Source: an uncultured virus (IMG/VR IMGVR_UViG_3300047195_000798)
Lineage: Duplodnaviria > Heunggongvirae > Uroviricota > Caudoviricetes
Direction: 5' to 3' (one strand)
DNA: 37,923 bases
IMG/VR virus record: IMGVR_UViG_3300047195_000798
Shown: piece after piece, positions 16,971-37,923 of the stretch
How positions within the stretch are numbered: position 1 is the stretch's first letter
How the letters are laid out: each line of letters opens with the position of its first letter
Program-made: the position numbers and the translations under genes
The notes under the pieces: generated by a model
What the model was told of the DNA's origin: nothing
Databases searched by the model: none
The model's input: the letters and a program-made list of their open reading frames with translations, nothing else

Positions 16971-16981
16971 ATTATTCTCTC

Positions 16982-17882: not shown

Positions 17883-18023
17883 AGATGGATATCAACTTCC
17901 AGTTTAAAAATTTTAGTAAAAAAAGAACCCCATCTATCTTCATTTATCATACATCACATCCATACCATCATAGAAACACATATAAAGGATTTCAACGATT
18001 CAATATGTGGCAGGAGAGTAGAG

Positions 18024-18557: not shown

Positions 18558-18659
18558 TCGGCCCAAAAAACAAAAACCATCGCGGATAGCGGATAATTAG
18601 TTTTAAATACTTGACTGATGATACTAATTTAGTTAAAATTACTTAGCTGGAGAGATGCG

Positions 18660-19301
18660 ATGGAAAAGCCTAAAAAGAATGGAAGAGTGTTAATTAAAAT
18701 AACCGCGTTAACATCATTTCTCATCCTTGGGATGACCGTGGGGATCGTTTTTATGGGGCAGTTCCAGGATGTTGTTTATGAGCAAGTCATTCATCAGCAA
18801 AGGAACCATTGGATTGCAGTTGCAGAAGGAAATCCTGGGGCGGGAAAGACAGGATTCCTTGTCGCAGTATTCGTTCTGCACAATCAGACGATGCCAACAT
18901 GGAAGAACGCAAACGACAGCCGTTGGAACAAGACATTTGATGGTACCTGGTCGAATTTCAGCTGGTCAGGCGCATTGAATGCATCTGCGCAGAAGACGCT
19001 CCCATACAACCAGAAGTTCGATATCTACTTTAAAGTGCGTGTCAACGTAAGCGACGGACAGAACTCAACGACGAAATACTGGAATCCAGCCTGGCAGCGG
19101 GCAAACATCACCTGTGCTGCACTTGGTCTCAGCAATCAGCCGATGAAGGTGTGGAACATATCGGCAACCAAGGGTGGAACGGGACAGGGATATATCTGGT
19201 GCGCATACTTCGTGAACGGGACTGCAGGGAACTGGGGTTACCAGATAAGCAAAGGACAGAAGATCAATATTTCTCTATGGCAACTTCAAATCTACAAGTA
19301 G
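18660..19301 (+). CDS. N-anchored extracellular glycoprotein
   Basis: Basic N-terminus plus TM helix; many N-x-S/T sequons; TTTTAAAT promoter at ~18601. Confidence 0.75.
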   Translation: MEKPKKNGRVLIKITALTSFLILGMTVGIVFMGQFQDVVYEQVIHQQRNHWIAVAEGNPGAGKTGFLVAVFVLHNQTMPTWKNANDSRWNKTFDGTWSNFSWSGALNASAQKTLPYNQKFDIYFKVRVNVSDGQNSTTKYWNPAWQRANITCAALGLSNQPMKVWNISATKGGTGQGYIWCAYFVNGTAGNWGYQISKGQKINISLWQLQIYK

Positions 19302-19315
19302 TCGAAAGGGATCGA

Positions 19316-19660
19316 ATGAAATGGTGGCACAACGTCCTTCTTTGTTTTATCCTATTCTGGATTGGGTTCAGCATGACATTTCCCATCTTCACGGGGAAGT
19401 CCGAACTCGAAACTGAGACGATTGCCACCGACCATCTCTATTCAAGCGATTGGATTGCTGCACAGAACATCTTTTCTAGGTGTGCGGAACTCTCCATATG
19501 GAAAGTCTCGCCGTTGCTACCTGAAAGTGAAAAGGTCGATGACAATCCATGCGAACCGCCAATCCTAAAAATAGTGATTCAGGAGACGACCACACAGATT
19601 GACTATGATGGGCAACATCGGTTGACAGTTTTGGTTAAAGGGGGGGATTTTGATTGGTGA
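19316..19660 (+). CDS. Small N-anchored/secreted protein
   Basis: MKWWHNVLLCFILFWIGF hydrophobic N-terminus; 3' part of ORF 19151..19660. Confidence 0.65.
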   Translation: MKWWHNVLLCFILFWIGFSMTFPIFTGKSELETETIATDHLYSSDWIAAQNIFSRCAELSIWKVSPLLPESEKVDDNPCEPPILKIVIQETTTQIDYDGQHRLTVLVKGGDFDW

Positions 19661-22600: not shown

Positions 22601-23976
22601 CAGCACAAAACAACACAAGGTTCAAGAACAGCGTTCAAGGGTGGTTGACTGCTCAGAACACATCGACATCGCTTGCTGCATGGACGATGAAGGCAAGTGG
22701 GTGGCTCATCGCTGAAAACACAACCAGATTTAAGAATAGCGCACAAGGGTGGCTCACTGCTCAAAATACGACAACGGTTGGATGGGTGACGAGATCAACA
22801 GGGTGGCTCACTGCTCAGAATACAACCACGATTACATGGCGTGTAAGAACGACCGGTTGGCTCACGTCTCAGAACAACACAAGGTTCAAAGCATCTATTT
22901 CAGGCTGGCTCACTGCTCAGAACAATACCAGATTCAAGACATCGACGCAAGGCTGGCTCACTGCTCAGAATACAACCACGATTACATGGAGTGTAAGAGC
23001 GACTGGCTGGTTGACCTCTCAGAACACCACAAGATTCAAGACATCGACATACGGCTGGATATCCGCGCAGAATATATCCGTTGCGGGCTGGGTCATAAGG
23101 ACGATGGGTTGGTTGACCTCTCAGAACAACACAAGGTTCAAAGCATCTATTTCAGGCTGGCTCACTGCTCAGAACAATACCAGATTCAAGACATCGACGC
23201 AAGGCTGGCTCACTGCTCAGAATACAACCACGATTACATGGCGTGTAAGAACGACCGGTTGGCTCACGTCTCAGAACAACACAATGCCAGAATTAACGCT
23301 CCCGTCTGTGTATCCGACTTCAGGAATAGCGAGCTATACAATATTTTACTTTAATATAACCTGGGAAGATATCGATGGGGATGCGCCTACGGCGGGCTAT
23401 CTGAATGTTAATATAAGCAGGACGGGCTGGTACGTGAATGCAAGCATGACGTGGGTGAGCGGAAGCAATATATCTGGAGCGAATTATACTTACAGTACAA
23501 AATTGACCGCGGGTTCCTATTCATATCAATTTTGGGCATATGATGGGATAAGTTACAATCATACGTCTTCCTACAACAATCCAACTGTGAATGCCCAATC
23601 GTATTCGATAAGCGTCACACAAAGTGATTCAATACTGTGGTTCAATATGACTTCATTGGGAACATTTGGCACGCAGGCCAATGTACCGGCATCAGGGCAG
23701 TCATCAGGAAATCCAGCATTGGCAATATTGAATCAGGGAAACGTCCCTATCAATCTCACCATAAAAATCAACGTGAGCGTCGGATCAGGGCTATCATTGA
23801 AATGGAAAGGAGATAATAGTTCGACAGGTGCCACAGTGATAACAACAAGCGAAAATATAATTCAGGTGGACCTTGCAGTTGGAACGGAAAAAGATATATG
23901 GCTATGGATGGACTTTACAAACGCAGCTCCCGGGTCAGGCACTCGGGCGATAACCATAACAAGCAGCGAGGGATAA
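19654..23976 (+). CDS. Large secreted adhesin-like glycoprotein: two beta-propeller-like repeat regions, Ig-like domains, GWLTAQN repeat stalk, C-terminal pilin-like domain
   Basis: Signal peptide; recurring (Y/F)E(F/Y)D...G..P blades in two duplicated blocks; 17 GW(L/I)xxxN repeats; no C-terminal TM helix. Confidence 0.85.
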   Translation: MVRWKRIFNVLFSLFLAFIVVQMPLPIAGALFGQMGDQNENTYEWNANEGRRPNTIRLGNSEYYLIVTSGASATDYDGWAYTIRVWNNNGTIRKGVVSSYEFDPSEGWDPEVVKVNGSSSYYAVSYVDRFPTQRKRVVMVLEAWENNGTIRNRNISRMSLSYEGGYTSTSGNIFASMKYISNNIYAVAYNVSGNLYLETVYISPTNGLIGPSVNDTQMVGKGINPSMLALDSDTVALVYSKNTSVTRGDGLLTTYNISSTGAITDLYADNWTCEPGAAGNPYIMPILESSNNWVVGIAYSDRASDGRFNTTKVNKTGKFETKTWAGNIEFDTSDCLYPYVFKVSVNQSYSATISMLFGISYQWGSADGATKVLTVNPSGNPVAVVDTLEFDTADCISRPNTLFVSNFNFLTVYEGNGNDGMSCVYRIYTNDPPKILSPYPADNATGVTLQPSNVTVFVNVSDVGDIINATWWSNSSGSWKQFGKNLTIPSRGSISNKNVSWYKYDPQEGQRPDILRLGDIGNTYYLIASDGDNGTDNDGYFRTIKAWNNNGTVRKGLVDSFEYSKQDSVAPSLVCVGENMFAVLYYAASSTGVGGKKQRVATVGVTNSTGDIASSVTDTLDLTNNGINASSCQIMHLNRTVYACLYSASDSDLWLETINISADGTIADAVIDSQEINITDGVYPRMCRVDGNTIAMVYAGGGSDGILMTWNITDSGDIASSYGNYWKYEATQGLYPDIIRANGAGTIYVVVCSGSGGDGWMQTIRINNTGQMQRNLINSYEYDPADGNYNRVYYMGYNTFAVTYQWSSTDGAMRTLRITPEGDIGAFERDTLEFEWAGDLLSYAPLVSMGNDFYLIAWETVGADGQVATVQVGDQGGYVIKMANKNFSTQSTKYWWKVNCTDGVNFCEKVFRFTTAQNVTAGQKTWRNREIGWITSQNITRFTSIQGWLTAQNDTKFKTTTYGWLSAQNNTRGHKTAVEGWLTAQNNTRFKNSVQGWLTAQNTSTSLAAWTMKASGWLIAENTTRFKNSAQGWLTAQNTTTVGWVTRSTGWLTAQNTTTITWRVRTTGWLTSQNNTRFKASISGWLTAQNNTRFKTSTQGWLTAQNTTTITWSVRATGWLTSQNTTRFKTSTYGWISAQNISVAGWVIRTMGWLTSQNNTRFKASISGWLTAQNNTRFKTSTQGWLTAQNTTTITWRVRTTGWLTSQNNTMPELTLPSVYPTSGIASYTIFYFNITWEDIDGDAPTAGYLNVNISRTGWYVNASMTWVSGSNISGANYTYSTKLTAGSYSYQFWAYDGISYNHTSSYNNPTVNAQSYSISVTQSDSILWFNMTSLGTFGTQANVPASGQSSGNPALAILNQGNVPINLTIKINVSVGSGLSLKWKGDNSSTGATVITTSENIIQVDLAVGTEKDIWLWMDFTNAAPGSGTRAITITSSEG
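22447..23283 (+). repeat. Intragenic tandem repeat, 17 units of about 15-20 codons (GWLTAQNxT)
   Basis: Visible in protein and DNA; 22867-22989 identical to 23119-23241; 22804-22881 identical to 23206-23283. Confidence 0.95.
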
Positions 23977-23990
23977 AAGGGAGAGAGAAA

Positions 23991-25097
23991 ATGGAACGAA
24001 AAAGGGCAGAGAACAAGAGGGTGGAACGAAAAAGGGCAGAGAATACGAAAATAAAGAAAAGAAAGGCCAGTAGCATTATCCTCGTAATACTGCTAGTGGC
24101 AATAGCTGCGATAGGGGCCGGAATATTGATAAATAAAAGCAACACGGGAACGGATGGAATTCTTTATAGCAACGATCCATACAATTCGACAGTGCCGTAT
24201 AAGCTGTTCGAACCATCGGGGCTGAATCGTACCGTGAGCCAGTTCATCGCTAACCCAATATACAACGTGTTGACGAAAGACTATCGGCCAAGATGGACCG
24301 GTTGCACGGATGAGGAGTTCATGCAGATATTCGTCAGTCTGCCGAAAATGCCGCAGGACTTCTACAAGAAATACAGCATGTTCATGAATGGGGAGCTTAC
24401 TGATTATGACCGGCTTGGGCCGGAGTATTGGCAGCAACCAGAATTCTATGGTTTGGATCAAACGGCTTTTAACAATTATTTGAATAGGCCGGGTACCGGC
24501 ATGTGGACGCCAGGGACGATTGGTTGTAAGCCATCTGTGCGGCAAATTGAAATGAGGAAGGGCGCTTCGGTGAGTGTCTCTGCATTCTTCCATGGCAATG
24601 TCGAGGGATCAGAAGCGTATCTTGGAACGATGTTCTATGTATTGTTCCCCGATGCAGCAATGAACTACGATGGAGTGAAGATATTCAATCAGCCAAACAA
24701 CGCCAGCAAATACATTCATGCAAGTATCACTGGTCCGGATAATGATATAGTATTCACATCATTCCAGAAAAACATCACTGGCCTGGGGATAAGAGCCAAT
24801 GAAAGGCTTGTGTTGTTTTCACCTACCTATCATAAAAATGATATGATGGGAAAACAGATGCAACTGGGATTCAAGCCGAGCTGGTGTTATAAAGTGACAC
24901 TGGCAATCTCTGTGGATAAGGAATGTCCGCTCGGAACTTATGACATTGCAATAGACATGGAGAATCCATCAGCAGCAATCAATCAAGAATATATTTGGGT
25001 GCTGAGTGGGCACCCCTATTATGCGTTCTACTTTCCAGCACCACGTGAATGGAGGCCAGTATGTCCGTTCTTTCAGGTCATCATAACCGTGGTGTGA
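23991..25097 (+). CDS. N-anchored extracellular protein, paralog 1 (DYRP / YxQPE family)
   Basis: GGGAGAG RBS; 22-bp duplication encoding ERKRAEN twice; TM helix; similar to the next gene. Confidence 0.75.
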   Translation: MERKRAENKRVERKRAENTKIKKRKASSIILVILLVAIAAIGAGILINKSNTGTDGILYSNDPYNSTVPYKLFEPSGLNRTVSQFIANPIYNVLTKDYRPRWTGCTDEEFMQIFVSLPKMPQDFYKKYSMFMNGELTDYDRLGPEYWQQPEFYGLDQTAFNNYLNRPGTGMWTPGTIGCKPSVRQIEMRKGASVSVSAFFHGNVEGSEAYLGTMFYVLFPDAAMNYDGVKIFNQPNNASKYIHASITGPDNDIVFTSFQKNITGLGIRANERLVLFSPTYHKNDMMGKQMQLGFKPSWCYKVTLAISVDKECPLGTYDIAIDMENPSAAINQEYIWVLSGHPYYAFYFPAPREWRPVCPFFQVIITVV

Positions 25098-25954
25098 TTC
25101 AAATAACGGTTCAATTGTTGTTTATCGTGCTCACACTTTGCAGTTCATTTCAGGTCGTGGCAGAGGAAGCCGTGTACAATCCAACAACTGGAGATTATCG
25201 ACCAGTATATACAAATTTTTCATACAGTATTTTTAAGGAACTCCCTTCATTCCCCTTTGACTTCTGGATAAAAAAGGCATTGTTCGATAATCAGGGACTG
25301 GAGGCAAAACGATTGGCACCAGAGTGTTATTTGCAGCCGGAGATAATGCCTGGGTGGGCGCAGTGGCACGACAGAGTTTACGGGGAGAAAAACCGGAGCA
25401 TGGTCGGACTTTACGGCATATCGATATATCCATCCCGATTTGATATCTTTAACATGAAAAAGATGGAGACGACAAACATATCTACATTGCTCTATACTGC
25501 ATTCGGGGTGGAAATCTATCAGGGGGCAAAACTAGTGGCAGTGTATGACAACACGAGCGTCGATATAAAATTGATGTCGCCGAACTCCAATGTATTTCTT
25601 CTCACTCCAACATATCCATCATTCAATGCCTCGTGGTGTAGGCCAATCATCTACAAGATAACGATGTTGAAGCAAAAAAATACCACGATAGAGATAATGG
25701 AAATAAAGCCACCAAGTGATATCGATTCTCAGTACGCAAACGAATATGGCAATAAATATGTGTCTGGAGGCAGCATGTTGGGGCTGCGTGTTCCAAAAAT
25801 GAAGATTTACATATATGCAGCTCCATGGGGCAACATAAGTGCAAAAGATAAAAATGTCGATAATTATAATCCATATTTGTATCTATTCGTCATCATGACG
25901 ATTGTGGTCGTAGTGGCGGTGTTTGTATATGCAAGATTGCGGAAAAAACGTTAA
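25094..25954 (+). CDS. Secreted, C-anchored protein, paralog 2 (DYRP / YxQPE family)
   Basis: GTGA overlap start; signal peptide; C-terminal TM plus RLRKKR; shares DYRP, LP..P.DF, RL.PE.Y.QPE, PTY and SWC. Confidence 0.75.
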   Translation: MIQITVQLLFIVLTLCSSFQVVAEEAVYNPTTGDYRPVYTNFSYSIFKELPSFPFDFWIKKALFDNQGLEAKRLAPECYLQPEIMPGWAQWHDRVYGEKNRSMVGLYGISIYPSRFDIFNMKKMETTNISTLLYTAFGVEIYQGAKLVAVYDNTSVDIKLMSPNSNVFLLTPTYPSFNASWCRPIIYKITMLKQKNTTIEIMEIKPPSDIDSQYANEYGNKYVSGGSMLGLRVPKMKIYIYAAPWGNISAKDKNVDNYNPYLYLFVIMTIVVVVAVFVYARLRKKR

Positions 25955-27746
25955 AAAAAGAAAGAGGGTATGGCCATATGCACTGGCGATTGTATTATTG
26001 TTGTTGCTGGTGGCTGTAGCAACGAATTACAATGTATTGGTGAGATGGGCCGTCCGTCCACCTAGTCCAACAATCGAGCTAACTCATCCAGATGCCTATG
26101 AAACGATACCGAGCAATGTAACGTATTTCAGTTGGATTGGAAGCGGAGGGGGCGGGCCGTTATGGTATGTATGGTACTGCGATGTCGTCAATACTTTTAA
26201 CAGTCCATTGCGAAGGGTGGTTGACACAGGAACGATGCAGCACTACACGGCATCATTCATGGACGGGACGTATTATTGGAGGGTGGAAGTAACCGACAAC
26301 ATTACTGTCGCTGTGAGCGAAACAAGGAAATTCACCGTAAAAAAGTACGCAACAAATTCATTCCCCTATCTGACCGATGGCTCCGTCACGCCAACCAGCG
26401 GATATAACGACATTCCATATGTTTACAAGGTAACGTTCAACGACCCCAATAACAATCCAGCAGCATGGGTGAGAGCGTACATCGATAGGAATCCGTTCAA
26501 TATGATTGAACAAGATATCTCTGACCTTAATACGATTGATGGGAAGATATATACCTATGCGACACTGCTCAGCGTTGGCAGTCATAATTATACGTTCTTC
26601 TGCTCAGATGGCTTTGCTATCAACCATACTGGAGTATATCTCGGTCCAAATGTGACGCAGACGCCAGGCGGGAGGAAGATGAACAAGGTGACGATACAGG
26701 CTGACAACACCAACAGACAACCGGGGGAAATATTCACCGGGAATTTATTGATCATCCAGGAAAATAAAACAGATAAATACGAGGTGTACTGGTATGTCTC
26801 TCTGCTGGACATATACGATAGAGCAGTCAACTTTGACAGCGGTTCGAGTGCAATACTGACCTCAATCACAGTTGCCTATTCCATTCTTGTTAGCAGTACG
26901 GCAAACACTGGAAACTATCGGTTGGAAGCAAAAACGTATGACCGGCCAAGAAGTCAAGCGGGAGCGGAGCTGCTCGGGACTGACAGCATCGAGGTGACGG
27001 TAGGGGGTCAGTCATGGATTACTATCATTCAGAATGCTCTTGGTACCCTTGGCAGCGCTTTCGGCATAATCCCTATACAATTTTGGTTCGTGGGAATAAT
27101 GTTGGCAGCGGCTGTCATCTATCTGTTCTGGCGCGGGAGAGGAATTCCAAAAAACAATCCCGAAAAATCAAGACGGGAAATGTCTATGGTAAAAAGAAGA
27201 TCGGCGGAAACCAGATCGCTGGAGAAAAAGATGACTCAGCCTGAACGGGGGAACGGCTCTTGGTGGAAGGTGGCATTCGTAGTCATCGTAGCAACACTGA
27301 TTATCGCTGCAGGCTGGATAGTGCTTCCAAGGTATCTCACACCAACTATAGTGGACACGACATTCACCGACGCATCGTACCGTTGGATACGACAAGAAGC
27401 ACCGAACCTGACGACATTCACGGGAAATGGAAGCGATGGGGATTGGGGCACCTGGGAACCATTGTCGAACGTGACGAACGGGACGTACTACTTTTGTAAC
27501 TATAACGTACGAGTTGGTGCGGTCGGAGCAGTATGGGAGGTAAAGGATAGCTACGGACGCACAAACTACACGATGCCTGCGGCCACACTCAGTGAGGCCA
27601 TTATAAAAGTACAAGGCTACTACGATATAGCTGCTGGGACGATAACATATCAGCTCTATTATGGTTCTGCATGGTATGACCTGGCAACTAGGGTATCAGC
27701 GAATGAGTTTTATGAAGAAGCAATACTATGGAAATTCCCTGTCTAG
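25923..27746 (+). CDS. Multi-Ig-domain membrane protein with three TM segments
   Basis: N-terminal TM, FN3/Ig-like GTYYWRV, PYLTDGSVTPTSG domain (shared with the adhesin), two further TM helices. Confidence 0.75.
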   Translation: MYMQDCGKNVKKRKRVWPYALAIVLLLLLVAVATNYNVLVRWAVRPPSPTIELTHPDAYETIPSNVTYFSWIGSGGGGPLWYVWYCDVVNTFNSPLRRVVDTGTMQHYTASFMDGTYYWRVEVTDNITVAVSETRKFTVKKYATNSFPYLTDGSVTPTSGYNDIPYVYKVTFNDPNNNPAAWVRAYIDRNPFNMIEQDISDLNTIDGKIYTYATLLSVGSHNYTFFCSDGFAINHTGVYLGPNVTQTPGGRKMNKVTIQADNTNRQPGEIFTGNLLIIQENKTDKYEVYWYVSLLDIYDRAVNFDSGSSAILTSITVAYSILVSSTANTGNYRLEAKTYDRPRSQAGAELLGTDSIEVTVGGQSWITIIQNALGTLGSAFGIIPIQFWFVGIMLAAAVIYLFWRGRGIPKNNPEKSRREMSMVKRRSAETRSLEKKMTQPERGNGSWWKVAFVVIVATLIIAAGWIVLPRYLTPTIVDTTFTDASYRWIRQEAPNLTTFTGNGSDGDWGTWEPLSNVTNGTYYFCNYNVRVGAVGAVWEVKDSYGRTNYTMPAATLSEAIIKVQGYYDIAAGTITYQLYYGSAWYDLATRVSANEFYEEAILWKFPV

Positions 27747-27830
27747 GTCTATGTCAACATTTTTATAGTGAAAAACCATTCTGTCTAGTATAGCAAGAGA
27801 GAAATCTAAAACTAGGAAGGGAAAGAGAAT

Positions 27831-29063
27831 ATGTTTAGAAGAACAGCAATTATTTTAGTTTTAATGCTGGTGATGAGCGGAACGACAACCATATTGATAT
27901 CAAATGAAAACTACATAGCTAAAGCAGAACAATGGCCAAACTACGTCAATGCGACAATTGCAAATCTAACTGCCACAATTAATGCACGTTTTAGTAATCT
28001 AAGCGCAAAGATGAATGCCACATTTACTGCATTAAGAGAACTAACAATCAACGGAAGTATGAACCTTGCGAACCTGAGTCTAGTTCAACGGCAGATTCTT
28101 TATGGTCTTATAGACAAGTACAACAACTATATATTGCAGAACGGGACGCTCAACGGCCCACGCGGCAATTCGACGTTCGCGAATACGTTCACCAAACTAC
28201 AGCTCCTGCTAACCTCAAATGCAACCATGGCGGGAAAAATCGACAGGATACTACACTGCATAGCCGGGAACAACACACTGACTAATTGGAACTTATTCCA
28301 ACTATCGAATGAGATATTATTCGGATTGATAGACAAGGACAATCGGTACATATTGCATAATGGGACGCTGGCATTTCCGCATGGGAATTCCGCAATGCTC
28401 ATTTCACTGCAGAATGACGTAGTTATCTCGGAGATGATAAAAGCTGCCAGTGCGCTGCAGAGAAACGACACGCAACAAATCGTAAGCGCAGGAGATAGCA
28501 ATAAGAATACATTAACTACTAATCTGAACGATATGGGAAAAACTACTGTAAACAGCGTAGGGAACCTGCAGTGGTGGCTCGCAGCAATACTGGTGATTCT
28601 AGTTCTCTTGACATTCTATATGGTGTATCTAAGGGAAAGGCTACGACGATATTCACCGCGACTGAAGTATCCGCAGTGCTATGGAGAGCCACGGGTGTTC
28701 GATTCAACTGGGGCATGTCAGGGATGCAAACTGAAAGAAGACTGTGAGCGGTCAATCATCGCGACGACGGCAAACCTCCAGGCTCAAGAAGAAGCAATAA
28801 CGACGGAACAGCCAAAAAAGAAGAAGATGGGGCTAGGTCTGCTCAAACGAAATAGAGAACCAATTGTTGAAGCAGAAGAACCGGTAGAAGATGTCCCGCA
28901 ATGTTTTGGAAAATACCTTGCAGGCGACAAAGAATGCACGAAGTGTAGCAAAGCCATGGAATGCATGGATGAGACTCCGGGAGTAAAACCAGCACGGCAG
29001 GATGTACGACAGAGGCAACAACAACCAGCATCTGGATCTTTTGATCCATTGGCAGGGATGTAA
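27831..29063 (+). CDS. Single-pass glycoprotein: helical ectodomain with internal duplication, two cytoplasmic Cys4 motifs
   Basis: Signal peptide; ILYGLIDKYNNYILQNGTL vs ILFGLIDKDNRYILHNGTL; TM; PQCYG...CQGC...C and PQCFG...CTKC...C; own TTTTTATA promoter ~27760. Confidence 0.8.
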   Translation: MFRRTAIILVLMLVMSGTTTILISNENYIAKAEQWPNYVNATIANLTATINARFSNLSAKMNATFTALRELTINGSMNLANLSLVQRQILYGLIDKYNNYILQNGTLNGPRGNSTFANTFTKLQLLLTSNATMAGKIDRILHCIAGNNTLTNWNLFQLSNEILFGLIDKDNRYILHNGTLAFPHGNSAMLISLQNDVVISEMIKAASALQRNDTQQIVSAGDSNKNTLTTNLNDMGKTTVNSVGNLQWWLAAILVILVLLTFYMVYLRERLRRYSPRLKYPQCYGEPRVFDSTGACQGCKLKEDCERSIIATTANLQAQEEAITTEQPKKKKMGLGLLKRNREPIVEAEEPVEDVPQCFGKYLAGDKECTKCSKAMECMDETPGVKPARQDVRQRQQQPASGSFDPLAGM

Positions 29064-29064
29064 A

Positions 29065-29583
29065 ATGACGACAATAACCAGTTGTAAAGATTGCTTCGGA
29101 GTCAAAACTGCAGATGGGAAAAAACTAAAGTACCAGAAGCCAAAATGCGCATACGAGCGCGCTGTAGATTATATGAATGCTTACAATTTTTTCAAAGAAA
29201 AGTGGGGCGACGATTTCCAAGAACTGATTCAAAATGCACAGGCATTGGTACCAGAGACGAATGCATGCAAAGGAGACCGGAATGCTTCCATGGCTATCCT
29301 TGAGCAGCAGGAAATGTTTGACGAGATGAAGGAAAACATGAAGGCGTTCAACGAGGCGATAAAACAGCTTGGGACGGTACTGCCTACAACAACAAAAAAG
29401 CCCGCAAAGGAAAAAGTTCCAAATCGAATGGAAACGTGGCGACCGGACATCAAGGAAGAGAACATGCAAGATGCCCTTGACAAGCTCAAAGAGAGGTACC
29501 CGACATTGACTGAAGCAGACATCGTCACCAGTAAAAATAAGAACAACAATTTGACGATACGATACAGAGTCCCGGCCGATTAG
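29065..29583 (+). CDS. Hypothetical cytoplasmic protein with CxxC and coiled coil
   Basis: ATG one base after the upstream stop; CKDC. Confidence 0.7.
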   Translation: MTTITSCKDCFGVKTADGKKLKYQKPKCAYERAVDYMNAYNFFKEKWGDDFQELIQNAQALVPETNACKGDRNASMAILEQQEMFDEMKENMKAFNEAIKQLGTVLPTTTKKPAKEKVPNRMETWRPDIKEENMQDALDKLKERYPTLTEADIVTSKNKNNNLTIRYRVPAD

Positions 29584-29603
29584 ATTTGAAGATAGGGAGA
29601 GAG

Positions 29604-30317
29604 ATGTGCACGATACGGGCAGGATTACTGCTGTTCAGGAAAGCGGTAAAGCTAAATGCAAAATGGCATCCGTTGGTCATCCCTTTGATAGTCGTCGGCA
29701 TCTATACGACGATGTTTTCGTGCGCCTATTTAGTTTCTGCAGATGATATCGGTGGAATAAACTACAATCAGAATAACACAGGGCAGCCGAACATGTTCTA
29801 TCAGTTCGAAGGACGAGTGTTCATCTTTGGAGAAAGCATCGGCGGAATGTATGTCTATGCCATTCCATCTGGGGGAACACTCACTAGCAAATTCACGGTC
29901 GAAATGCTTGCGAACCAGCACTGCTATTACCAGATAAAACTGGACAACCAGACCGTAGACCAGGGTGACTTTGACTTCTGGAAAAAAGTCCCACTGGAAT
30001 CCCAATATTCTTTTACAGACATTGAAGTGACCTTGAGGAATGGAACTGGGACAACGCTACCGAAATTCACGTTCAGCCATGTGACCATCATGCAAACCGG
30101 TGGCGGTGGCGGAGGTGGTGGTGGAGGCGGTGGCGACGGTGGAGGAAATGTTTCTCCAATCATCGAACCGTACATCAAGATGACACAGGGTCAATGGAAT
30201 CTGTTCATATTGGCCAGGCTCCTTATCGATATCTCGCTTGGTGTATTGGGATATCTCGCTGGATCGAGTCTCGCTGTCATAAAATGCGATTACAGGGGGG
30301 TCGAGCAGGTACTATGA
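29604..30317 (+). CDS. Membrane protein with poly-Gly linker
   Basis: N-terminal hydrophobic segment, beta-rich domain, Gly run at ~30098-30146, C-terminal TM. Confidence 0.75.
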   Translation: MCTIRAGLLLFRKAVKLNAKWHPLVIPLIVVGIYTTMFSCAYLVSADDIGGINYNQNNTGQPNMFYQFEGRVFIFGESIGGMYVYAIPSGGTLTSKFTVEMLANQHCYYQIKLDNQTVDQGDFDFWKKVPLESQYSFTDIEVTLRNGTGTTLPKFTFSHVTIMQTGGGGGGGGGGGGDGGGNVSPIIEPYIKMTQGQWNLFILARLLIDISLGVLGYLAGSSLAVIKCDYRGVEQVL

Positions 30318-30577
30318 GTCGAGCGGAGAAGCGGCTGGAGAAAAGAGTGCAGCAGATGCGTGACCAGGAGACCCATGATGATCCGACCATTCAGTATAGA
30401 AGAACAGTTGTCAAGACTAAGATGTATTGGCCGCTAGAGCTGATGCGGCGAGGGGAGACAAGGGTAATATTCCAATACATAGCAGTATGGGCCTTTATTA
30501 TCATTGCATTTGGAGCTGGATTAGTTCTCCTGATTAGATTTATTCTATTGCATTTCGGGTGGTGGCCATGGCTCTGA
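30314..30577 (+). CDS. Small membrane protein
   Basis: ATGA overlap; long C-terminal hydrophobic helix. Confidence 0.7.
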   Translation: MSRAEKRLEKRVQQMRDQETHDDPTIQYRRTVVKTKMYWPLELMRRGETRVIFQYIAVWAFIIIAFGAGLVLLIRFILLHFGWWPWL

Positions 30578-31590
30578 TAGATGTCCACGAAAATGCGACT
30601 CCAGATATGTACCAGGAAGTCCCAGCAGAGGTACCATCAGATCGCGTCTATGCAGAGCAGCAGGTGATGCAGGAAGAAGCGATATCGAACATGCCACCAT
30701 TGGCGACGCTGCTTCTCCAAAAACAGTATGACCTCTCCCAGACGATAAAGATAATCGCGGGGGTAATCGTGATAGCCGTTCTATGGTATTTCGTTGGATT
30801 GGATGCGGTCATCACCGGTATCATCATGTTCAGCATCTTCTTCGCATTCGGATACATTACGATGATACGGCACATCATGAAGGACAGGACGGTCTTCTTT
30901 GAATCGAGAAAGGCGGGGCAGATCGTAGACCCGAAGCAGCCGGGTGTCCCGCAATATACGCGGAGGTTCCAGGTGGGATTTGACAGGACGGCCATCTGGG
31001 CGGTGCCGAATACGATACTTCGGAAAGGCTTTTTCAGGATACCTGGGGAAGCCGTGACGCCGTTGCCTGGAAACATACACTGGTACTTTGTGGATCTCTT
31101 CGACGAGCGGAACTACACATGCGTATTACCGAGATCGGCGGACGTGGCGAACATCTGCCTGGACGCAAACATGAACCCTTCATTGGGCATGCAGTTCAAC
31201 TATCAGTTGGACATTTTGCAGGAAGTTGAACGCCTGGATCATGAGACGCTCAATCAATGGGAATCGAAGTTGATATCGACAGAGGCTGCAAGGGAAAAGC
31301 TGCTGATAACGCAGCAGAAGATCCAAGCAATACTGGGGCCTGCAGGAAGCGGTGCACGGCGCGATGTTTTCTTCACACTGCAAAGTCAGGTCCCGATACT
31401 GCAAAACTTAGTAAGGGTTGCAAGAAACAGCATCATAGTGCTTGCCAACTCTGTTGCGGCTGAAATTCTTTACGACTACATGAATGAGCCCATGCCTGCC
31501 AAGATCAAAGCCAACATTAATGAAGTACGAAAGCGCTTAAATGCACCATTGGTTGGTGAATTCCGTATTGAAGATTTGTGGGGCATATGA
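30568..31590 (+). CDS. Two-TM membrane protein with large soluble C-terminal domain
   Basis: GGTGGTGG RBS; hairpin TM pair; helical C-terminus. Confidence 0.75.
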   Translation: MALIDVHENATPDMYQEVPAEVPSDRVYAEQQVMQEEAISNMPPLATLLLQKQYDLSQTIKIIAGVIVIAVLWYFVGLDAVITGIIMFSIFFAFGYITMIRHIMKDRTVFFESRKAGQIVDPKQPGVPQYTRRFQVGFDRTAIWAVPNTILRKGFFRIPGEAVTPLPGNIHWYFVDLFDERNYTCVLPRSADVANICLDANMNPSLGMQFNYQLDILQEVERLDHETLNQWESKLISTEAAREKLLITQQKIQAILGPAGSGARRDVFFTLQSQVPILQNLVRVARNSIIVLANSVAAEILYDYMNEPMPAKIKANINEVRKRLNAPLVGEFRIEDLWGI

Positions 31591-32283: not shown

Positions 32284-34707
32284 TTGATAAAATATAATTC
32301 TCAAACCTGGACTTGCGGAAAAAACATAGTGGGGGAAGACGGTTTTTGCAATTGCGGGACCCATCCAAAGACGGGAGATTTCTTCGTCTATAGGAATTGT
32401 CCAGAATATTCGCCAGTGGAAAAAAGCTCTTTGTCCATTGCTGAAAGAATTTCGAAGGATGTAGGAATAAAAGAAAAGAAATTCAAAGATTCTCTGAAGC
32501 CATTGGACCACACCGAGGTACCCACCGACATATACGATCCCTTTGTGGAAATAAGAATGAAAAAGGATTCGTTCGAGACCGTCCATGCAAAACCACATAT
32601 CCAGAAAAAGAAGATGTTCGATCTCACAAAAGAGTTTTTCGAATCGCTGAAACAGCCGATACCGCACAACGATTCCACAGATATAACGAACCCGAATATC
32701 TTCGACAATATTCAACTCATGAATATTCATATTTATGGCGGCCCGGGGAGTGGAAAGACAACAATGGCCCGTTCCATAGGAGAAAAAATATATGATCATT
32801 ATGGCTCAGAAATCACTGATTGCATAGAGTCATCGTACATCCCGGAGGCGATTGTCGCTATGGATCCTTCGAAGACAGTTTTCGTATTATCAATAGACGA
32901 CCCCATGAGGGAACAAGATGCCAGAAAGCCGAACGATCCGGTCGTCGACGAGGCATGCCAATCGTTCTTCGAGATACGTCACATCCTGATGAGGAGCAAG
33001 GTGAAGTACAAATTGGAGGAATATCTTGACATTAAGCGACTGTCAAAAGAGGACGAGCGTCTGATACGGGAAGAGCGCTGGATAGAACTCGCCAACAAAT
33101 ATCCACTCCCCCTCATCAAATGCAGTGCATTGGTCTTCACCATATTCGGGCCACAGGTTCCGCAGTTGGATCAACGGCTACATCTTGGAAAAGCCTGGGA
33201 GATATACAAGGCGTATGGCTCATTAGACGTCCAGAGACGGGCAATTCTGGAAAAAGAGCTGCAGGAGCATTATTATGTCCAGCATCTCAAGGAGAATGAG
33301 AAGTTGTGGCGCATCGATAAAAACATGGCCTTTATGTCCCGGAGTCTAGTGAAAGATCCATTTGGGGACAAACGGTGCGGGTGGCTCTGGATATATCCGC
33401 CGAAGAAGATGGTGTTCAAGCGCAAAGAGCGCGGGGAGCAGAGGCATCAGGAACGAGTGAAGAACGAGACAGAACTGCTCGACGAATGGGCACATTATCT
33501 TTATTTCAATCGTAAGAACCTCCAACCACCCTACACGCCGCATGAGAAGATACACGACCGGAGGGCATCTATCAACAATTTCATACGGGACACGGTGAGC
33601 ACAGGGATTGATCCAAGGTCGGGGCAGCAACTGCCGCCGCAGGATCAGACTTTTTTCAGGAGGACGAAAAACCTTGTTACGACGCTCGACGACCGCATCA
33701 CGAAGATGTTCGCGGTGCAGGCGGATGAAGAGAAGATCAAATTTATGGCAGAGGCCCTGCTAGCGAGGGCTGAAGAAGAGGAAATCAATCCATTCCAGAA
33801 ATCCGCGCAGGCCTTATTCAGGGCACTGTCTCACAGATTGGAAAACCGGGATGATGAATTTCTAAGAAAAAAAGGCGTATGGACTAGGATATTCGACCTG
33901 GTCATCTACAATTGGATAAAGAAATACGGAGAGGAAACAGAAGACGAGGGTGAGGGGCCGCCAAGGATGGATGGGGCTGCGCGGGTGCCGATGCTGATCG
34001 AACAGATGAGAGAAACAGTGAGAGGGCAGATGAAGGAAGATATCGGAGATACGGCGAAGTTCAATCTCAGCATCGCAGACGCGATAAACCTGGTATTGCA
34101 GGACCGGCAGGATCTGAAGAATGGTGCGGATATCTATTGTAGCATGTATAGCCTCTGCGACAAGGACCACATGACGTGCAAGGAAATGTCGCTGAACTCG
34201 ATGACACTCTATGGGGAGCAGCTCACCGAAGAGCAGGTGAGGTACCGGAAGAATCAGTTCGAAGGCGTCTTGAACCAGAGGATAGGCGACCTATTCGAGA
34301 TATGGCTGGAATCGATACTTAACCAGGGATACGAGATGCCCGGGGTGATTGAAGAGGTCGAGAGGGCAGAGCGAGTTGGGGGCCTGGGAAAGCCAGATCT
34401 CGTCATCACGCACACTGACGGGCGAGAATCGGTGGGATCTGCAAAGTGCTACACGAGTCAGCGGACGGAATCGTTCGAGAAGGCAGAGTTTAACGCAGAG
34501 CTTCTATATCATAGCAGGCTTCTGAGGAACAAAGGGAAATTGTTCTTTATTTACAGAAACCTGGGGATAAAGGATATGCTTTCTGTGAAGGTGTTCGATT
34601 CGGCGATGGATGTACCGCTGAACGTCTATTTCTCACCGAAGGACGCAGGCTCATTCGTATTCAGAAAGAAAGATGAAGTGAAGGAGGAGAAAAATGATAC
34701 TGACTGA
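32284..34707 (+). CDS. P-loop ATPase (A32/Zot-like, FtsK-HerA type) fused to a C-terminal PD-(D/E)xK-type nuclease
   Basis: Walker A GGPGSGKT, Walker B VLSIDD, FFEIRH, PQ...LDQRL; C-terminal GDLFE...GGLGKPDLVI...SAKC; N-terminal Cys cluster. Confidence 0.75.
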   Translation: MIKYNSQTWTCGKNIVGEDGFCNCGTHPKTGDFFVYRNCPEYSPVEKSSLSIAERISKDVGIKEKKFKDSLKPLDHTEVPTDIYDPFVEIRMKKDSFETVHAKPHIQKKKMFDLTKEFFESLKQPIPHNDSTDITNPNIFDNIQLMNIHIYGGPGSGKTTMARSIGEKIYDHYGSEITDCIESSYIPEAIVAMDPSKTVFVLSIDDPMREQDARKPNDPVVDEACQSFFEIRHILMRSKVKYKLEEYLDIKRLSKEDERLIREERWIELANKYPLPLIKCSALVFTIFGPQVPQLDQRLHLGKAWEIYKAYGSLDVQRRAILEKELQEHYYVQHLKENEKLWRIDKNMAFMSRSLVKDPFGDKRCGWLWIYPPKKMVFKRKERGEQRHQERVKNETELLDEWAHYLYFNRKNLQPPYTPHEKIHDRRASINNFIRDTVSTGIDPRSGQQLPPQDQTFFRRTKNLVTTLDDRITKMFAVQADEEKIKFMAEALLARAEEEEINPFQKSAQALFRALSHRLENRDDEFLRKKGVWTRIFDLVIYNWIKKYGEETEDEGEGPPRMDGAARVPMLIEQMRETVRGQMKEDIGDTAKFNLSIADAINLVLQDRQDLKNGADIYCSMYSLCDKDHMTCKEMSLNSMTLYGEQLTEEQVRYRKNQFEGVLNQRIGDLFEIWLESILNQGYEMPGVIEEVERAERVGGLGKPDLVITHTDGRESVGSAKCYTSQRTESFEKAEFNAELLYHSRLLRNKGKLFFIYRNLGIKDMLSVKVFDSAMDVPLNVYFSPKDAGSFVFRKKDEVKEEKNDTD

Positions 34708-35179
34708 TGGAGACATCATTGAGTTATGTAACGCAGAAGAACCGCTGATAGCACCATTCAACGAGAAGCAACTGACACCGAACGGATACGACGTATCAAT
34801 CAAGGAGATAGCTGTTGATGGAAAGACCCTGGAGCCACGGGAGGATAGCAGCGGAAAGAAGATAATCGTCATCCCTGCGAAGAAGCCGTTCATCATCCTG
34901 ACGAGGGAATGGCTCATCATGCCAGCGATAGTCGTAGGAACACCATTTATAAAGACAAAATATGCGCGCATGGGGATAGTTCCAGCCTTTGGTGGTATCG
35001 AGGCCGGATTCAGAGGTAATCTGAACCTTTGTGCAATGAACGGGAACGATGCACCGATAGAGCTTTGTTTGGATGCAACCTTCACCCAGATAATGTTTCA
35101 TCTTGCTGGCAAAAAACCGCAGAAGCTTTATGCCCAGAGATCCGGCAATTATCAGAATCAAGATAGGGTTATGAAGTAA
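34694..35179 (+). CDS. dcd: Trimeric dCTP deaminase/dUTPase family protein
   Basis: MILTD.DI, QLTPNGYDV, ARMGI, IEAGFRGNL, FTQIMF, SGNYQNQ. Confidence 0.85.
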   Translation: MILTDGDIIELCNAEEPLIAPFNEKQLTPNGYDVSIKEIAVDGKTLEPREDSSGKKIIVIPAKKPFIILTREWLIMPAIVVGTPFIKTKYARMGIVPAFGGIEAGFRGNLNLCAMNGNDAPIELCLDATFTQIMFHLAGKKPQKLYAQRSGNYQNQDRVMK

Positions 35180-35220
35180 TAAAAACACCTTGGTTAAAAC
35201 TAATTCTTCTTATAAACCAT

Positions 35221-35292
35221 CGAAACCTTTTTTATCTACAACGCGATACTAAACTGTATCACCTACCCTTGCCCTAAAAAGGCAAGCGTAGG
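35221..35292 (+). promoter_or_regulatory. TATA-like promoter followed by a leader hairpin
   Basis: GAAACC-TTTTTTTAT, then CCTAC-C-CTTGCC/GGCAAG-C-GTAGG stem. Confidence 0.5.
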
Positions 35293-35314
35293 CCCTAGAG
35301 GTGTGGAGGGGACA

Positions 35315-35491
35315 ATGCCAGTCATGCGTGGATACACCACGAAAGATGGGAAACGGTGCGGGTATTACAAATGGGGAGAATCGGGTTTTAAGTACAAGTA
35401 CGACCTTGACAAAGAACAATCACGTAAATTAGCACTTGCAAAGGTCAAACGATACGGGCGCGCAGTGGAGGTAAGCAAACATGGAAGATGA
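35315..35491 (+). CDS. Small basic viral-type protein (MPV...YKWG..G.KY)
   Basis: GGAGGGG RBS; motif resembles small proteins found near phage morphogenesis genes. Confidence 0.65.
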   Translation: MPVMRGYTTKDGKRCGYYKWGESGFKYKYDLDKEQSRKLALAKVKRYGRAVEVSKHGR

Positions 35492-35684
35492 TTATTGTAA
35501 AAAGGATATCTTGACTGAAGTGGCGATATCAGCTGTGGAGGGACTCCATTATGCCGAGGACCGATTGAGGTCGCTTGCCTTTCAGGTCGAGTTCGGAAAA
35601 CAGCCAACGGAAAAGGATCAGGAAATATTGAAAAAATTAGCATACAAAAAAATACTCCGAGAAAAACTAGGCGTCACCATATAA
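35481..35684 (+). CDS. Small hypothetical protein
   Basis: GGAGGT RBS; ORF track. Confidence 0.6.
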   Translation: MEDDYCKKDILTEVAISAVEGLHYAEDRLRSLAFQVEFGKQPTEKDQEILKKLAYKKILREKLGVTI

Positions 35685-35702
35685 ATATGGAGTGAATTAA
35701 TT

Positions 35703-35906
35703 ATGGAAATAACTAAAGCATATTTGAAAAAATCCATACGAGCTGAGAGCAAAGCAAACAAAGATTATTTGAAACATGCAAAAGGAAAACAAGGGAAATA
35801 TCTGAAAGAGATTGCACGTGATGAAAGAGATCATCTAAAGAAGCACAAGAAGCATCTTAAAAAATTGGAAGACGCTGAAAAACAAAAAACTAAAAAGAAG
35901 AAATGA
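35703..35906 (+). CDS. Half-ferritin/rubrerythrin-like helix-pair protein, Lys-rich
   Basis: E..A...Y...L.EIA.DE..H diiron half-motif. Confidence 0.6.
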   Translation: MEITKAYLKKSIRAESKANKDYLKHAKGKQGKYLKEIARDERDHLKKHKKHLKKLEDAEKQKTKKKK

Positions 35907-36107
35907 GACTCGCTGAATTACCTCTAGGCTTAGGGGATTCGAAGATCAGCGAGAGGTTTCATCGCAGACCTGCTTTCCTTCGATATCCCCCAGTATGCCT
36001 AGCTGAGACTCGCTGGAACTTAATACCTCATCTATGGCCAGGGGCATCGGAGGTCAGCGAGGGGGTCCATCCAGGATCTTGTTCATGCCTCCGATATCCC
36101 GATGCCT
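35904..36107 (+). ncRNA. Tandem pair of ~100-nt structured repeats (candidate novel RNA motif)
   Basis: TGAGACTCGCTG at 35904 and 36004; shared TACCTC, AGGGG, TCAGCGAG, CGATATCCC and ATGCCT; compensatory changes in the stems. Confidence 0.65.
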
Positions 36108-36213
36108 TAAAGTGGTGATAAATTATGGAATTCGGGGAAGAATTGCATCTATATGAGCAACTGGTAGAGCTTCAACTCTGGTGTAGAAGAGTTCTAGAGG
36201 CGGTGAGTATTAG

Positions 36214-36615
36214 GTGACATTAATTAATAATGAATCAATATTTTCTCCTAAAGAACAAATAATGATACATGTTATAAGCTGTTTTTTATTTCCAGTTGGA
36301 TTAGTTATCTTGTATTATTGGAATGATTGGAGATTTACATTATCAGAATTTGAGTATCAGACCGTTGGGATGTCTATTGGATTGTTAAGTTTATTTTTCA
36401 TTGGTATTGGTTTTGTTTGTATTGCTACTCTAGGAGAAACTTTTGATGATATTAAAAAATTGCGAAGCACATCAATAAACGCACACACGATGACATTGAT
36501 GATGCAGGCACACATGCCAAGCCCCCACCAGTTATGCATGAAATTCAGAAGGTCCTGCCCTCCGATGAAAAAGGGAAACAGGCATAATTGGGGGAAACGA
36601 AGTTGTACGGGGTGA
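36214..36615 (+). CDS. AT-rich two-TM membrane protein
   Basis: GGTGA RBS with GTG start; two hydrophobic helices; C-terminus uncertain. Confidence 0.5.
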   Translation: MTLINNESIFSPKEQIMIHVISCFLFPVGLVILYYWNDWRFTLSEFEYQTVGMSIGLLSLFFIGIGFVCIATLGETFDDIKKLRSTSINAHTMTLMMQAHMPSPHQLCMKFRRSCPPMKKGNRHNWGKRSCTG

Positions 36616-36676
36616 TATTAAAGCCCTGGTTGAAGACGATATATTAAAGGTAGAGTTTAAGGATTGATGGAGGATC

Positions 36677-37153
36677 ATGGACGAAAAGAAAAAAATCAGG
36701 AAAAGATCGCTTGTTGGTGACATCTTCTTTACAACAATGATCTGTGCATTTGCTTTATATGTGATAGTCTCCAACATTCTGGCAAAAGACACATCATTAT
36801 TGGGGATGCTGGCTGTATGGATAAACGCTGGAGTAGCAGTTGGTATGGTCTATGTGTTGATCAAAAGGATAAAACACCCGGAGCCCGAGGAGACCTGGGA
36901 CCGGTATTGTACCCAAGTTGTAAACGGACAGATGACCGAATTCCCGACCATCCTGAAACAGCAGTGCTCCAAGAGCATAGCAGAAGGGGCCAGGTGGGCA
37001 GACGGTATCAAGGCATCGATGGGGGCCTTTCATAGTTATAGGATCGTGGATTTAGCGGATGGCAGCATAATCGTTATCGATGGAAAAGAGGTGCGGAAAG
37101 CCGAAAAGAGGCAAGGATATGAGGGAGTCCATGTACCGAATCGTAACTGGTGA
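36677..37153 (+). CDS. Two-TM membrane protein
   Basis: GGAGG RBS; two hydrophobic helices. Confidence 0.7.
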   Translation: MDEKKKIRKRSLVGDIFFTTMICAFALYVIVSNILAKDTSLLGMLAVWINAGVAVGMVYVLIKRIKHPEPEETWDRYCTQVVNGQMTEFPTILKQQCSKSIAEGARWADGIKASMGAFHSYRIVDLADGSIIVIDGKEVRKAEKRQGYEGVHVPNRNW

Positions 37154-37362
37154 TTGAATGAACCAGGGGGGGGAAAACATTAAAAATCAATGAGTGATAG
37201 AGGTATTGGTGAAATGTAGGGTGAAGGTATCTTTTTATTACCATCTCCTTAACCATACCTTCACCTCCCCTCATTCTATTGGGAAACTATATAGTAATCT
37301 AAGGCATACTACTTACGAGGAACTATGCCAGGAACCCGGTAAAAGATGGATTTGGAGGTCAA

Positions 37363-37656
37363 ATGTCCGAAAATAGGGGAAAAATAAAAAAAACCATGAC
37401 CAAGGACGAGGCGCTCCGGTTCCACAAGACATGGTCGATAGCCTTCGTTCTGGGTGGCGTCTTGATGATTTTCATCGGAACGGAAGGGGCAATCGCGCTG
37501 TACAACGATATTAATGAAGGATTCGTCTGGTGGATGATAGGATTGCTATTCATAGGGGCGGGAATTGGTGAATTACGAAGCTATCGTAAGATGAAGAAGA
37601 GCGGGGATATCCCGCCCGTACAGGAAAAAATTGGGGATCGTGGCGAAAAAATCTAG
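37363..37656 (+). CDS. Two-TM membrane protein
   Basis: GGAGGT RBS; two hydrophobic helices. Confidence 0.7.
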   Translation: MSENRGKIKKTMTKDEALRFHKTWSIAFVLGGVLMIFIGTEGAIALYNDINEGFVWWMIGLLFIGAGIGELRSYRKMKKSGDIPPVQEKIGDRGEKI

Positions 37657-37741
37657 GGTTCGGGGCAGAAAAACCCCTGATATAGCTAGTTTTAAGGAGG
37701 GATTTTCGAGGTGTCTTTTACGAATTTTTCCTAGTTTTGAA

Positions 37742-37840
37742 CCGTTTTGGTACCAAAATGGGGAGACTGTAGAGTACCTGCTAGGGGATACAACTAGGTA
37801 AACTAGAGGGGATACTACAGAGTACCGTGTAGAGTACCGC
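37742..37840. repeat. Palindrome plus iteron-like short direct repeats
   Basis: TTTTGGTACCAAAA (37745-37758); AGAGTACC at 37771, 37819 and 37831; AGGGGATAC twice; AACTAG twice. Confidence 0.65.
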
Positions 37841-37923
37841 ATACATCTACCCAGATATCTCCCTATTTTGAAATATTATTCCTCCTCACCCACCCCCCCA
37901 AACCGCCTACGCCCCTTTAACCC

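Follow-up and report, generated by a model that had tools for sequence, protein, structure and literature searches.

The analyzed window is a stretch of 37,923 nucleotides from an uncultured virus (IMG/VR record IMGVR_UViG_3300047195_000798) and forms part of a contig of ~100 kb. Its clamp loader, which has relatives with 70-80% identity, was found to be closest to archaeal RFC small subunits, and the window also encodes an MreA/Lrs14-like regulator, a dCTP deaminase, and numerous proteins without a family that are predicted to be secreted or membrane-located. Neither a packaging motor or capsid family nor a transposase or relaxase family was recognized in the window. The element is likely an archaeal virus or another mobile element. 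Two divergent blocks, at 12848-17569 on the minus strand and 17856-31590 on the plus strand, encode signal-peptide or membrane-anchored proteins for which no Pfam or PHROG family was found above cut-off. These blocks include a 1440-aa protein with a repeat of 16-18 residues, followed by an 807-aa P-loop protein, and their content suggests that the archaeal element is enveloped or bears filaments and belongs to an undescribed group.

A cluster of small genes lies toward the end of the window on the plus strand, preceded by an archaeal-type promoter-like stretch at 35221..35236, where visual comparison with the consensus picked out a purine run followed by a T-rich box. Between this box and the first small gene's ribosome-binding site (RBS), two to three small hairpins were predicted (35245-35312; z of -2.83, 2 of 200 shuffles), and they may constitute a 5' leader structure. 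The first gene (35315..35491) encodes a basic protein of 58 aa, and 7 of the 10 substitutions listed before the first indel of a relative were at third codon positions. The second gene (35481..35684) encodes a 67-aa protein without a known family, for which 6 of 11 listed substitutions in the relative were at third codon positions. The third gene (35703..35906) encodes a lysine-rich, two-helix protein of 67 aa, which resembles half of a rubrerythrin/ferritin bundle and carries an ExxH motif. Its match to Pfam Rubrerythrin had an E value of 4.4e-5, above cut-off, and only two distant homologues were found among 1.84 billion representatives, both named rubrerythrin and located on contigs of 4.3 and 8.1 kb. 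The structural model of this protein (pLDDT 88) consists of two helices, and the nearest folds were EncFtn, EncB, and rubrerythrin, none of them at E <= 0.001. As a strongly basic, stand-alone half-rubrerythrin hairpin, the protein may either form a di-iron bundle as a dimer or interact with nucleic acid.

The stop codon of the third gene forms the first three bases of a tandem RNA motif, which is followed directly by an RBS-like GGTGA (36114-36118) and an open reading frame (ORF) of 30 codons (36125-36217), together occupying 36114..36217 on the plus strand. The GGTGA starts ~7 nt past the second hairpin of the motif and is predicted to pair with the linker of the second unit; no family match was found for the ORF. 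In addition, a 71-codon open frame (35903..36118, plus strand) starts in the upstream stop codon and runs across both units, and it was judged not to be a gene for the reasons given below. A bacterial-type terminator-like site was not found on the plus strand of 34600-37923. Further downstream, the contigs of two other studies pass directly from 36197 to 36559 in window coordinates, thereby skipping a 361-nt A+T-rich stretch (36198-36558) that contains most of a membrane-protein ORF (36214-36615). This A+T-rich gene is therefore variable and not tied to the motif, and its control by the motif was rejected as a candidate function because its DNA is absent from the contigs of those two studies. 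Past an A-run near 36455-36460, the tail of the same ORF makes better sense in a different frame, which suggests a frameshift or an assembly error.

Unit 1 of the motif occupies 35904..36003 and unit 2 occupies 36004..36110, with the 3' limit of the latter at ~36106-36110. On the plus strand, each is composed of a 13-nt leader, a linker (7-10 nt in unit 1 and 19 nt in unit 2), and a long hairpin. An earlier sequence-only reading had described two diverged units with starts exactly 100 nt apart, which the sequence bears out: the 12-mer TGAGACTCGCTG was found at 35904 and 36004 and at no other site in the window, and the two units are identical in 68 of 96 gap-free aligned columns. Their alignment score of 79 was far above that of shuffled sequences (mean 18.6, maximum 39, n=2000), and only four pairs of adjacent 100-nt windows scored higher, all of them within a protein repeat at 22.8-23.0 kb. 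A third copy was not found within the window, including by a scan with a hand-structured model. The tandem units are probably a real, uncatalogued RNA motif, as judged from two copies in one rare lineage.

Folding prediction placed the hairpin body of unit 1 at 35924..36002 on the plus strand, where it is divided into an outer stem (35924-35929/35997-36002), a G-rich stem (35933-35938/35985-35990), a middle stem (35939-35944/35978-35983), and an apical stem (35954-35971). The hairpin body of unit 2 was similarly predicted at 36036..36106 on the plus strand, with an outer stem (36036-36038/36104-36106), a G-rich stem (36041-36044/36097-36100), a middle stem (36046-36053/36088-36095), and an apical stem with three G-U pairs (36062-36080). 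The outer, middle, and apical stems named in the sequence-only reading were all recovered by the folding prediction, where most pair probabilities exceeded 0.9, and both apical stems were predicted to be plain 6-7-bp helices with 5-6-nt loops. The hairpins alone had z scores of -3.79 (unit 1) and -3.75 (unit 2), and none of 200 shuffles was equally stable. Among 1892 GC-corrected windows of 82 nt, they ranked first and third by stability. The z scores of the whole units were weaker (-2.17 for unit 1 and -1.81 for unit 2), because the leader remains unpaired in nested folding. A preference for the plus strand through G-U pairs, which had been proposed for the motif, held for unit 2 (-39.2 kcal/mol on the plus strand and -32.4 kcal/mol on the minus strand) but not for unit 1, which folds equally well on the minus strand (-35.5 kcal/mol, versus -33.5 kcal/mol on the plus strand).

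The conservation of base pairs between the two units was consistent with these folds. The compensatory change previously noted in the middle stem, from A39-U77 in unit 1 to G47-C88 in unit 2, is truly two-sided. Among 31 pairs matched by hand, 20 were unchanged, seven were changed on one side, three were changed on both sides, and one was broken, such that 10 of the 11 changed pairs still pair. The chance that all 10 kept pairs hold was 2.7e-4 under a transition bias, with the broken pair excluded from the product, and it was 0.059 when the apical stem and the P0 helix described below, the two helices with an analyst-chosen register, were left out. In an alignment guided by sequence only, 45 of 46 cells pair, compared with 33-56% with slid partners, and two changes were two-sided. 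A column-shuffle control on the two-sequence alignment was not significant (122 of 500). From these tests, the hairpin is therefore well supported yet unproven by covariation statistics, and it is very probable that an RNA hairpin is under selection at this locus.

The apical stem of each unit is flanked by the two strands of an internal loop of 15 nt, which is split differently in the two copies. The loop of unit 1 (35945..35977) consists of 35945-35953 and 35972-35977 (9 + 6 nt), and would measure 13 nt if an A.C mismatch were counted as closing, whereas that of unit 2 (36054..36087) consists of 36054-36061 and 36081-36087 (8 + 7 nt). The leaders (35904..35916 and 36004..36016, plus strand) are complementary to both strands of the loop. 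An 8-bp helix with the 5' strand, named P1, would form between 35909-35916 and 35946-35953 in unit 1 and between 36009-36016 and 36054-36061 in unit 2. A further helix with the 3' strand, named P0, is possible between 35905-35907 and 35973-35975 (3 bp) in unit 1 and between 36004-36007 and 36082-36085 (4 bp) in unit 2. P0 includes G-U pairs and its bases overlap a rival, weak 3-bp helix that closes the loop in an identical register in both units. Two states may thus be available to each unit, as docking of the leader competes with the loop-closing helix. In the docked model, leader base A5 and the G after the apical stem are left unpaired at the junction. The pairing of the leader with both strands goes beyond the sequence-only reading, which had considered the 5' strand, and the docked state itself is a prediction.

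In terms of energy, opening of the loop would cost 3.5 kcal/mol (unit 1) and 5.8 kcal/mol (unit 2), and the leader duplex would contribute -14.2 and -13.8 kcal/mol, respectively, with the pseudoknot loop cost lying outside the model. Within the P1 strands, the two units agree at 15 of 16 positions, compared with 53 of 80 elsewhere (P of 0.013); the leaders agree at 12 of their first 13 bases and the partner strands in the loop at 8 of 8. The only change in P1 converts an A-U to a G-U pair, and no two-sided change was observed. An equally long complement between leader and body was obtained in 27 of 3000 leader shuffles for unit 1 and 171 of 3000 for unit 2, and the same topology was formed by chance inside a coding region at one of the 82 loci (L174) of a viral control set. 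The 8-bp pairing that had been claimed is hence present as complementarity in both units and constitutes their best-conserved part, but it shows no covariation and its length is not rare among shuffles. The docked leader fold is considered moderately probable on these grounds. The broader proposal of an undescribed structured RNA with a pseudoknot or an alternative fold is supported, given the absence of an Rfam match, the retention of structure despite sequence change, and the energetic plausibility of leader docking.

Few relatives of the motif were identified. No RNA data set was listed among 10 sequencing runs, which bears on transcription in neither direction, and four of these runs were used for the comparison. 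Contig X2 from a second study is identical across 36009-36197, two further contigs (X4 and X5) lie outside the units, and a related contig with a depth of 2.6 covers 35925-36197 with 11 substitutions, three of which are shown, and four gaps. The segment TCAGCGAG, previously described as invariant, is not strictly so, as its first base is changed in unit 2 and deleted in unit 1 of the low-depth relative. The former change, U-to-C at 36054, would make a G-C pair of the G-U that ends P1 in unit 2, and would equally extend the middle stem; the latter, a deletion at 35946, leaves only 7 bp of P1 in unit 1.

Homologues of the RNA motif were not found beyond these near-identical sediment contigs. Exact patterns matched 0 and 0 stretches in viral contigs. 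Looser patterns matched 45 and 82 viral stretches and 110 metagenome stretches; all 237 were aligned and folded, the motif was present in none, and all were judged to be chance matches. These pattern scans require exact words, such that relatives with a covaried P1 would escape them. Covarying homologues, which the sequence-only reading had named as a test, were not found: with a hand-structured model across the window and 238 loci, only the two units were significant, and the best other matches had E values of 0.017 and 0.034, both within loci preselected by pattern. A blastn search against phages and plasmids returned short matches only, with E >= 0.8. Searches that proceeded through neighboring proteins were similarly negative for the motif, including those through the ferritin-like 67-aa protein (0 of 79 viral contigs, 0 of 339 in the alignment, and 0 of 132 genomes), an ATPase-like protein (0 of 69), and the clamp-loader alignment (1 of 189 viral records, which has 38% identity and does not carry the RNA, and 0 of 600 genome candidates). 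A protein atlas provided leads below threshold only. A description of the motif was not found in the literature, including by a search with sequence strings, where an unnamed entry in a supplement is possible. A term search of six of the nine supplementary files of PMC10690425 gave no match, and section 2.5 of bioRxiv 10.64898/2026.10.21.760802 includes no such motif. As a separate observation, a G+C-rich stretch of >100 nt recurs in two unrelated metagenome contigs (L105:279-355 and L026:716-766, both on the minus strand); it has no Rfam match, adjoins a tRNA-like sequence in L026, and is distinct from the tandem motif.

Comparison with known RNA families indicated that the motif is uncatalogued. 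An Infernal-type search against Rfam, proposed earlier as a check, found no family near its cut-off: with Rfam 15, the two weak matches in the whole window were both outside the units, and the best scores in 35850-36160 were 18.3 bits (cut-off 50) and 13.8 bits (cut-off 40). ARAGORN found no tRNA or tmRNA genes in the window. The core of the hammerhead ribozyme consists of CUGANGA and GAAA around three stems. CUGANGA and YUGANGA were absent from both strands of 35880-36140, and the sole GAAA on the plus strand is upstream of the units. The cores of the hairpin, twister, and pistol ribozymes showed no in-register recurrence in both units and had no Rfam match, and twister-sister and hatchet gave no match by their Rfam models. 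The L3 pattern of the HDV ribozyme was absent on both strands. The earlier inspection by eye had likewise matched neither hammerhead, HDV, twister, and pistol ribozymes nor tRNA, SECIS, and K-turn elements. An archaeal SECIS element was rejected, as the GAA in unit 1 is not kept in unit 2, and the apical stems, being plain 6-7-bp helices, form no K-turn. Other rejected candidates included a C/D box RNA, for which no C box was found; a bulge-helix-bulge, whose central helix would be only 3 bp when judged by eye against the rule for this motif; and stop-codon read-through, where the next in-frame stop follows after six codons.

Several other RNAs share parts of the architecture. The HDV-like and theta ribozymes, which occur in viruses of prokaryotes, have the same order of P1 strand, linker, P2 strand, P1 partner, apical hairpin, joiner, and P2 partner (PMC10879173). 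In contrast to these, the units lack P3 and L3, their P2 strand abuts the P1 partner (0-1 nt), and no catalytic C opens the joiner corresponding to J4/2, whose first bases are GC (unit 1) or GU (unit 2) (PMC10879173). An H/ACA guide RNA on its target is similar in that an internal loop pairs on both sides with one strand, which produces a three-way junction under an apical stem, and archaeal H/ACA RNAs contain one to three hairpins (PMC7991803). However, the docked strand here would be the unit's own leader, and the unpaired base is A rather than U (PMC7991803). Pocket pairing of this kind (>=3 bp on each side) was found here only with the own leader, with 8 + 3-4 bp. Furthermore, a K-turn or K-loop 5-6 nt above the pocket was absent, no ACA follows either hairpin, and the candidate boxes AGA and AAA are located 34 and 28 nt from the top of the loop, not 14-16 nt. 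A site at 30266 fits the pocket with a U at the unpaired place, by a pattern chosen after being seen; it was rejected as a trans target, as it is not the best duplex in the window. The type III antitoxins toxI, cptI, and tenpI also consist of two non-identical tandem repeats that are pseudoknot-capable and reside on mobile elements, but here a downstream terminator and toxin gene and an A-rich loop are missing, and the repeats follow three genes rather than a promoter (PMC12283969). No toxin of the ToxN, CptN, or TenpN families was found among the downstream ORFs in Pfam, PADLOC, or NCBIfam. The units therefore belong to none of the Rfam families, nor to the H/ACA, HDV-like, hammerhead, or type III antitoxin classes.

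The closest analogy may be with the exoribonuclease-resistant RNAs (xrRNAs) of flaviviruses and tombus-/luteoviruses, in which rings of 15-16 nt around the 5' end are formed with a pseudoknot, often in tandem copies, and which stop the bacterial RNase J1 as well as Xrn1 (PMC8374639). The likeness extends to tandem copies just past a coding region, a pseudoknot that in the units would capture the 5' end, and a closed loop of ~15 nt (PMC8374639). In the units, P1 and P0 can form in both copies around a 15-nt loop, without a two-sided change. In contrast to the xrRNAs, which in the part of PMC8374639 drawn on here are confined to RNA viruses of animals and plants, the motif resides in a DNA element of a prokaryote, its putative ring is a two-stranded internal loop, and it contains a hairpin of ~20 bp. 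The units are also without the three-way-junction xrRNA consensus and without an Rfam match. The ring analogy is hence a loose one, as a 15-nt internal loop differs from the continuous ring of the solved xrRNAs.

Built upon the observed duplication, hairpins, conserved complementarity, and gene context, a tentative reading is that a knot locks the 5' end of each unit and marks an RNA processing or decay boundary in the manner of an xrRNA, which is possible though short of probable. Each unit would fold as RNA within a polycistronic transcript made from a mobile element that is probably archaeal. Its own 5' leader would invade the 15-nt loop, forming P1 (8 bp) on its 5' side and P0 (3-4 bp) on its 3' side and displacing the weak loop-closing helix, and the docked state would tie the extreme 5' end of the unit into a knot, presumably by threading through the loop. 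Unit 1 would dock only when the upstream stop codon is free of the ribosome; docking would follow the end of translation because the unit 1 leader lies under the terminating ribosome. Decay of the upstream small-gene message may then stall at the knot, if the knot blocks nucleases, and the outcome would be either a stable RNA of 100-200 nt or a protected 5' end for the short downstream ORF. The second copy would serve as a back-up, as do tandem xrRNAs in flaviviruses. A decay or processing boundary fits best with a conserved leader whose start can be tied into a junction, a constant loop, tandem copies, and a position between a stop codon and an RBS. Counting against it is the distribution of aRNase J, the archaeal 5'-3' exonuclease, which PMC7144898 describes as missing from the Thermoplasmatales and Archaeoglobales; the host may lack aRNase J.

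Alternative functions for the same fold were weighed against this boundary reading. A cis-regulatory leader for the ORF at 36125 was considered unlikely, whether as a protein-bound translational operator (e.g., for the basic 67-aa or 58-aa protein) or as a tandem riboswitch, possibly metal-sensing given the ferritin-like neighbor. Two similar domains before one RBS recall tandem aptamers with a single expression platform, as in the glycine and SAM-II riboswitches (PMC9481103). The location of the GGTGA ~7 nt past the hairpin, with its predicted pairing to the unit 2 linker, and the invariance of the P1 sequence, which suggests recognition, would also suit a regulator. However, the RBS core (36114-36117) was predicted to be paired with the leader free or docked, with an unpaired probability of 0.00-0.13 in both states, and the downstream ORF has only 30 codons and no family, with the DNA at its end differing between relatives. 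No known aptamer was present either, and the ORF provides no clue to a ligand, in which respects the units differ from the tandem riboswitches (PMC9481103). The riboswitch proposed in the sequence-only reading is therefore weakened in its simple form, as the predicted RBS pairing is unchanged by leader docking. For the ribozyme proposed in the same reading, the cores of known classes are absent; a self-cleaving ribozyme of an undescribed class was retained and regarded as rather unlikely. Here, the docked junction would set the unpaired leader A against the unpaired G, and if both units were cut at the same position, the upstream message would finish just past its stop codon and a 100-nt monomer would be freed. 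The exact head-to-tail spacing, a compact double pseudoknot, predicted for both units and with unvarying bases at its junction, and a helix order that appears like that of the HDV ribozyme minus P3 are in line with this idea. Against it, no Rfam ribozyme matched, no conserved cytosine opens the 3' loop strand, and new ribozyme classes are rare among new motifs. An RNA with a scaffold, packaging, or decoy role would arise if leaders docked into the loop of the neighboring unit, or into that of a separate molecule, to build pRNA-like dimers or rings, and the basic small proteins might coat it. Cross-unit duplexes of leader and loop (-13.0 and -14.7 kcal/mol) were as stable as those within units, and such cross-pairing would explain the identity of P1 instead of covariation. 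This scaffold is nevertheless distinctly unlikely, considering that no packaging motor or capsid family was recognized, and that the unit 2 leader is one base from the foot of hairpin 1, from where the loop would be out of reach without unwinding.

Other explanations require no docked leader. In one of them, only the hairpins matter, either as REP-like elements that stabilize the upstream message against 3'-5' decay or as a decaying duplication, and the complementarity of the leader is due to chance. The start of the units at a stop codon, the sufficiency of the nested fold to account for all two-sided changes, and the shuffle frequencies given above, by which a complement of this length is not rare, are compatible with such an explanation. 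It was nonetheless deemed improbable, as it leaves unpaired the very leader that is the best-conserved stretch, together with its fully conserved partner strand. An element acting at the DNA level, by means of single-stranded hairpins or protein-binding inverted repeats for replication or recombination close to where the element ends, appeared very unlikely. The motif is 1.8 kb from the end of the window and near short repeats, CTCGCTG/CAGCGAG is also an inverted repeat in DNA, and unit 1 folds on both strands. With DNA energies, however, unit 2 loses its apical stem and the stability of the hairpins falls to -17 and -13 kcal/mol; furthermore, the arms of the inverted repeat are spaced differently (29 versus 37 nt), and no transposase or relaxase family was recognized in the window. 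Least credible of all was a 71-codon gene at 35903-36118, coupled to the upstream stop codon and with incidental folds, which is highly improbable despite its ATGA overlap at the start and an end inside the next RBS. This frame has no family match, and it was rejected as a gene because the units, being offset by 100 nt, fall in different frames and because two single-base deletions in the relative, at 35946 and 35984, would bring a stop at 36004 into frame.

If either of the more unusual functions applied, the units would represent the first members of a new functional RNA class of archaeal mobile elements with a leader threading a closed 15-nt loop, being either a stop-codon-adjacent self-cleaving ribozyme of a new fold that releases a 100-nt unit or an exonuclease-resistant knot, gated by the termination of translation, outside the RNA viruses of eukaryotes; this outcome is considered unlikely. 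Few structured RNAs are known from archaea or archaeal viruses, and a confirmed function would amount to a new ribozyme class, a prokaryotic counterpart of the viral xrRNAs, or an archaeal RNA switch linked to the termination of translation.

Additional sequence features were observed elsewhere in the window. A stretch at 30248-30276, inside a membrane-protein gene and ~40 nt before the next likely start, contains two copies of the 7-mer at the core of the leader and an 8-mer complementary to the 3' strand of the hairpin. These leader-like words are probably due to chance, as the pattern was chosen after the fact. A strong hairpin at 17800-17875, between the divergent gene blocks, ranked fourth of the 1892 windows with a minus-strand z of -3.04, and it is possibly a terminator or a leader. 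Near the window end, the region 37760-37860 includes one 8-mer in three copies and another in two, followed by C-rich runs, and represents a possible origin or terminal region.
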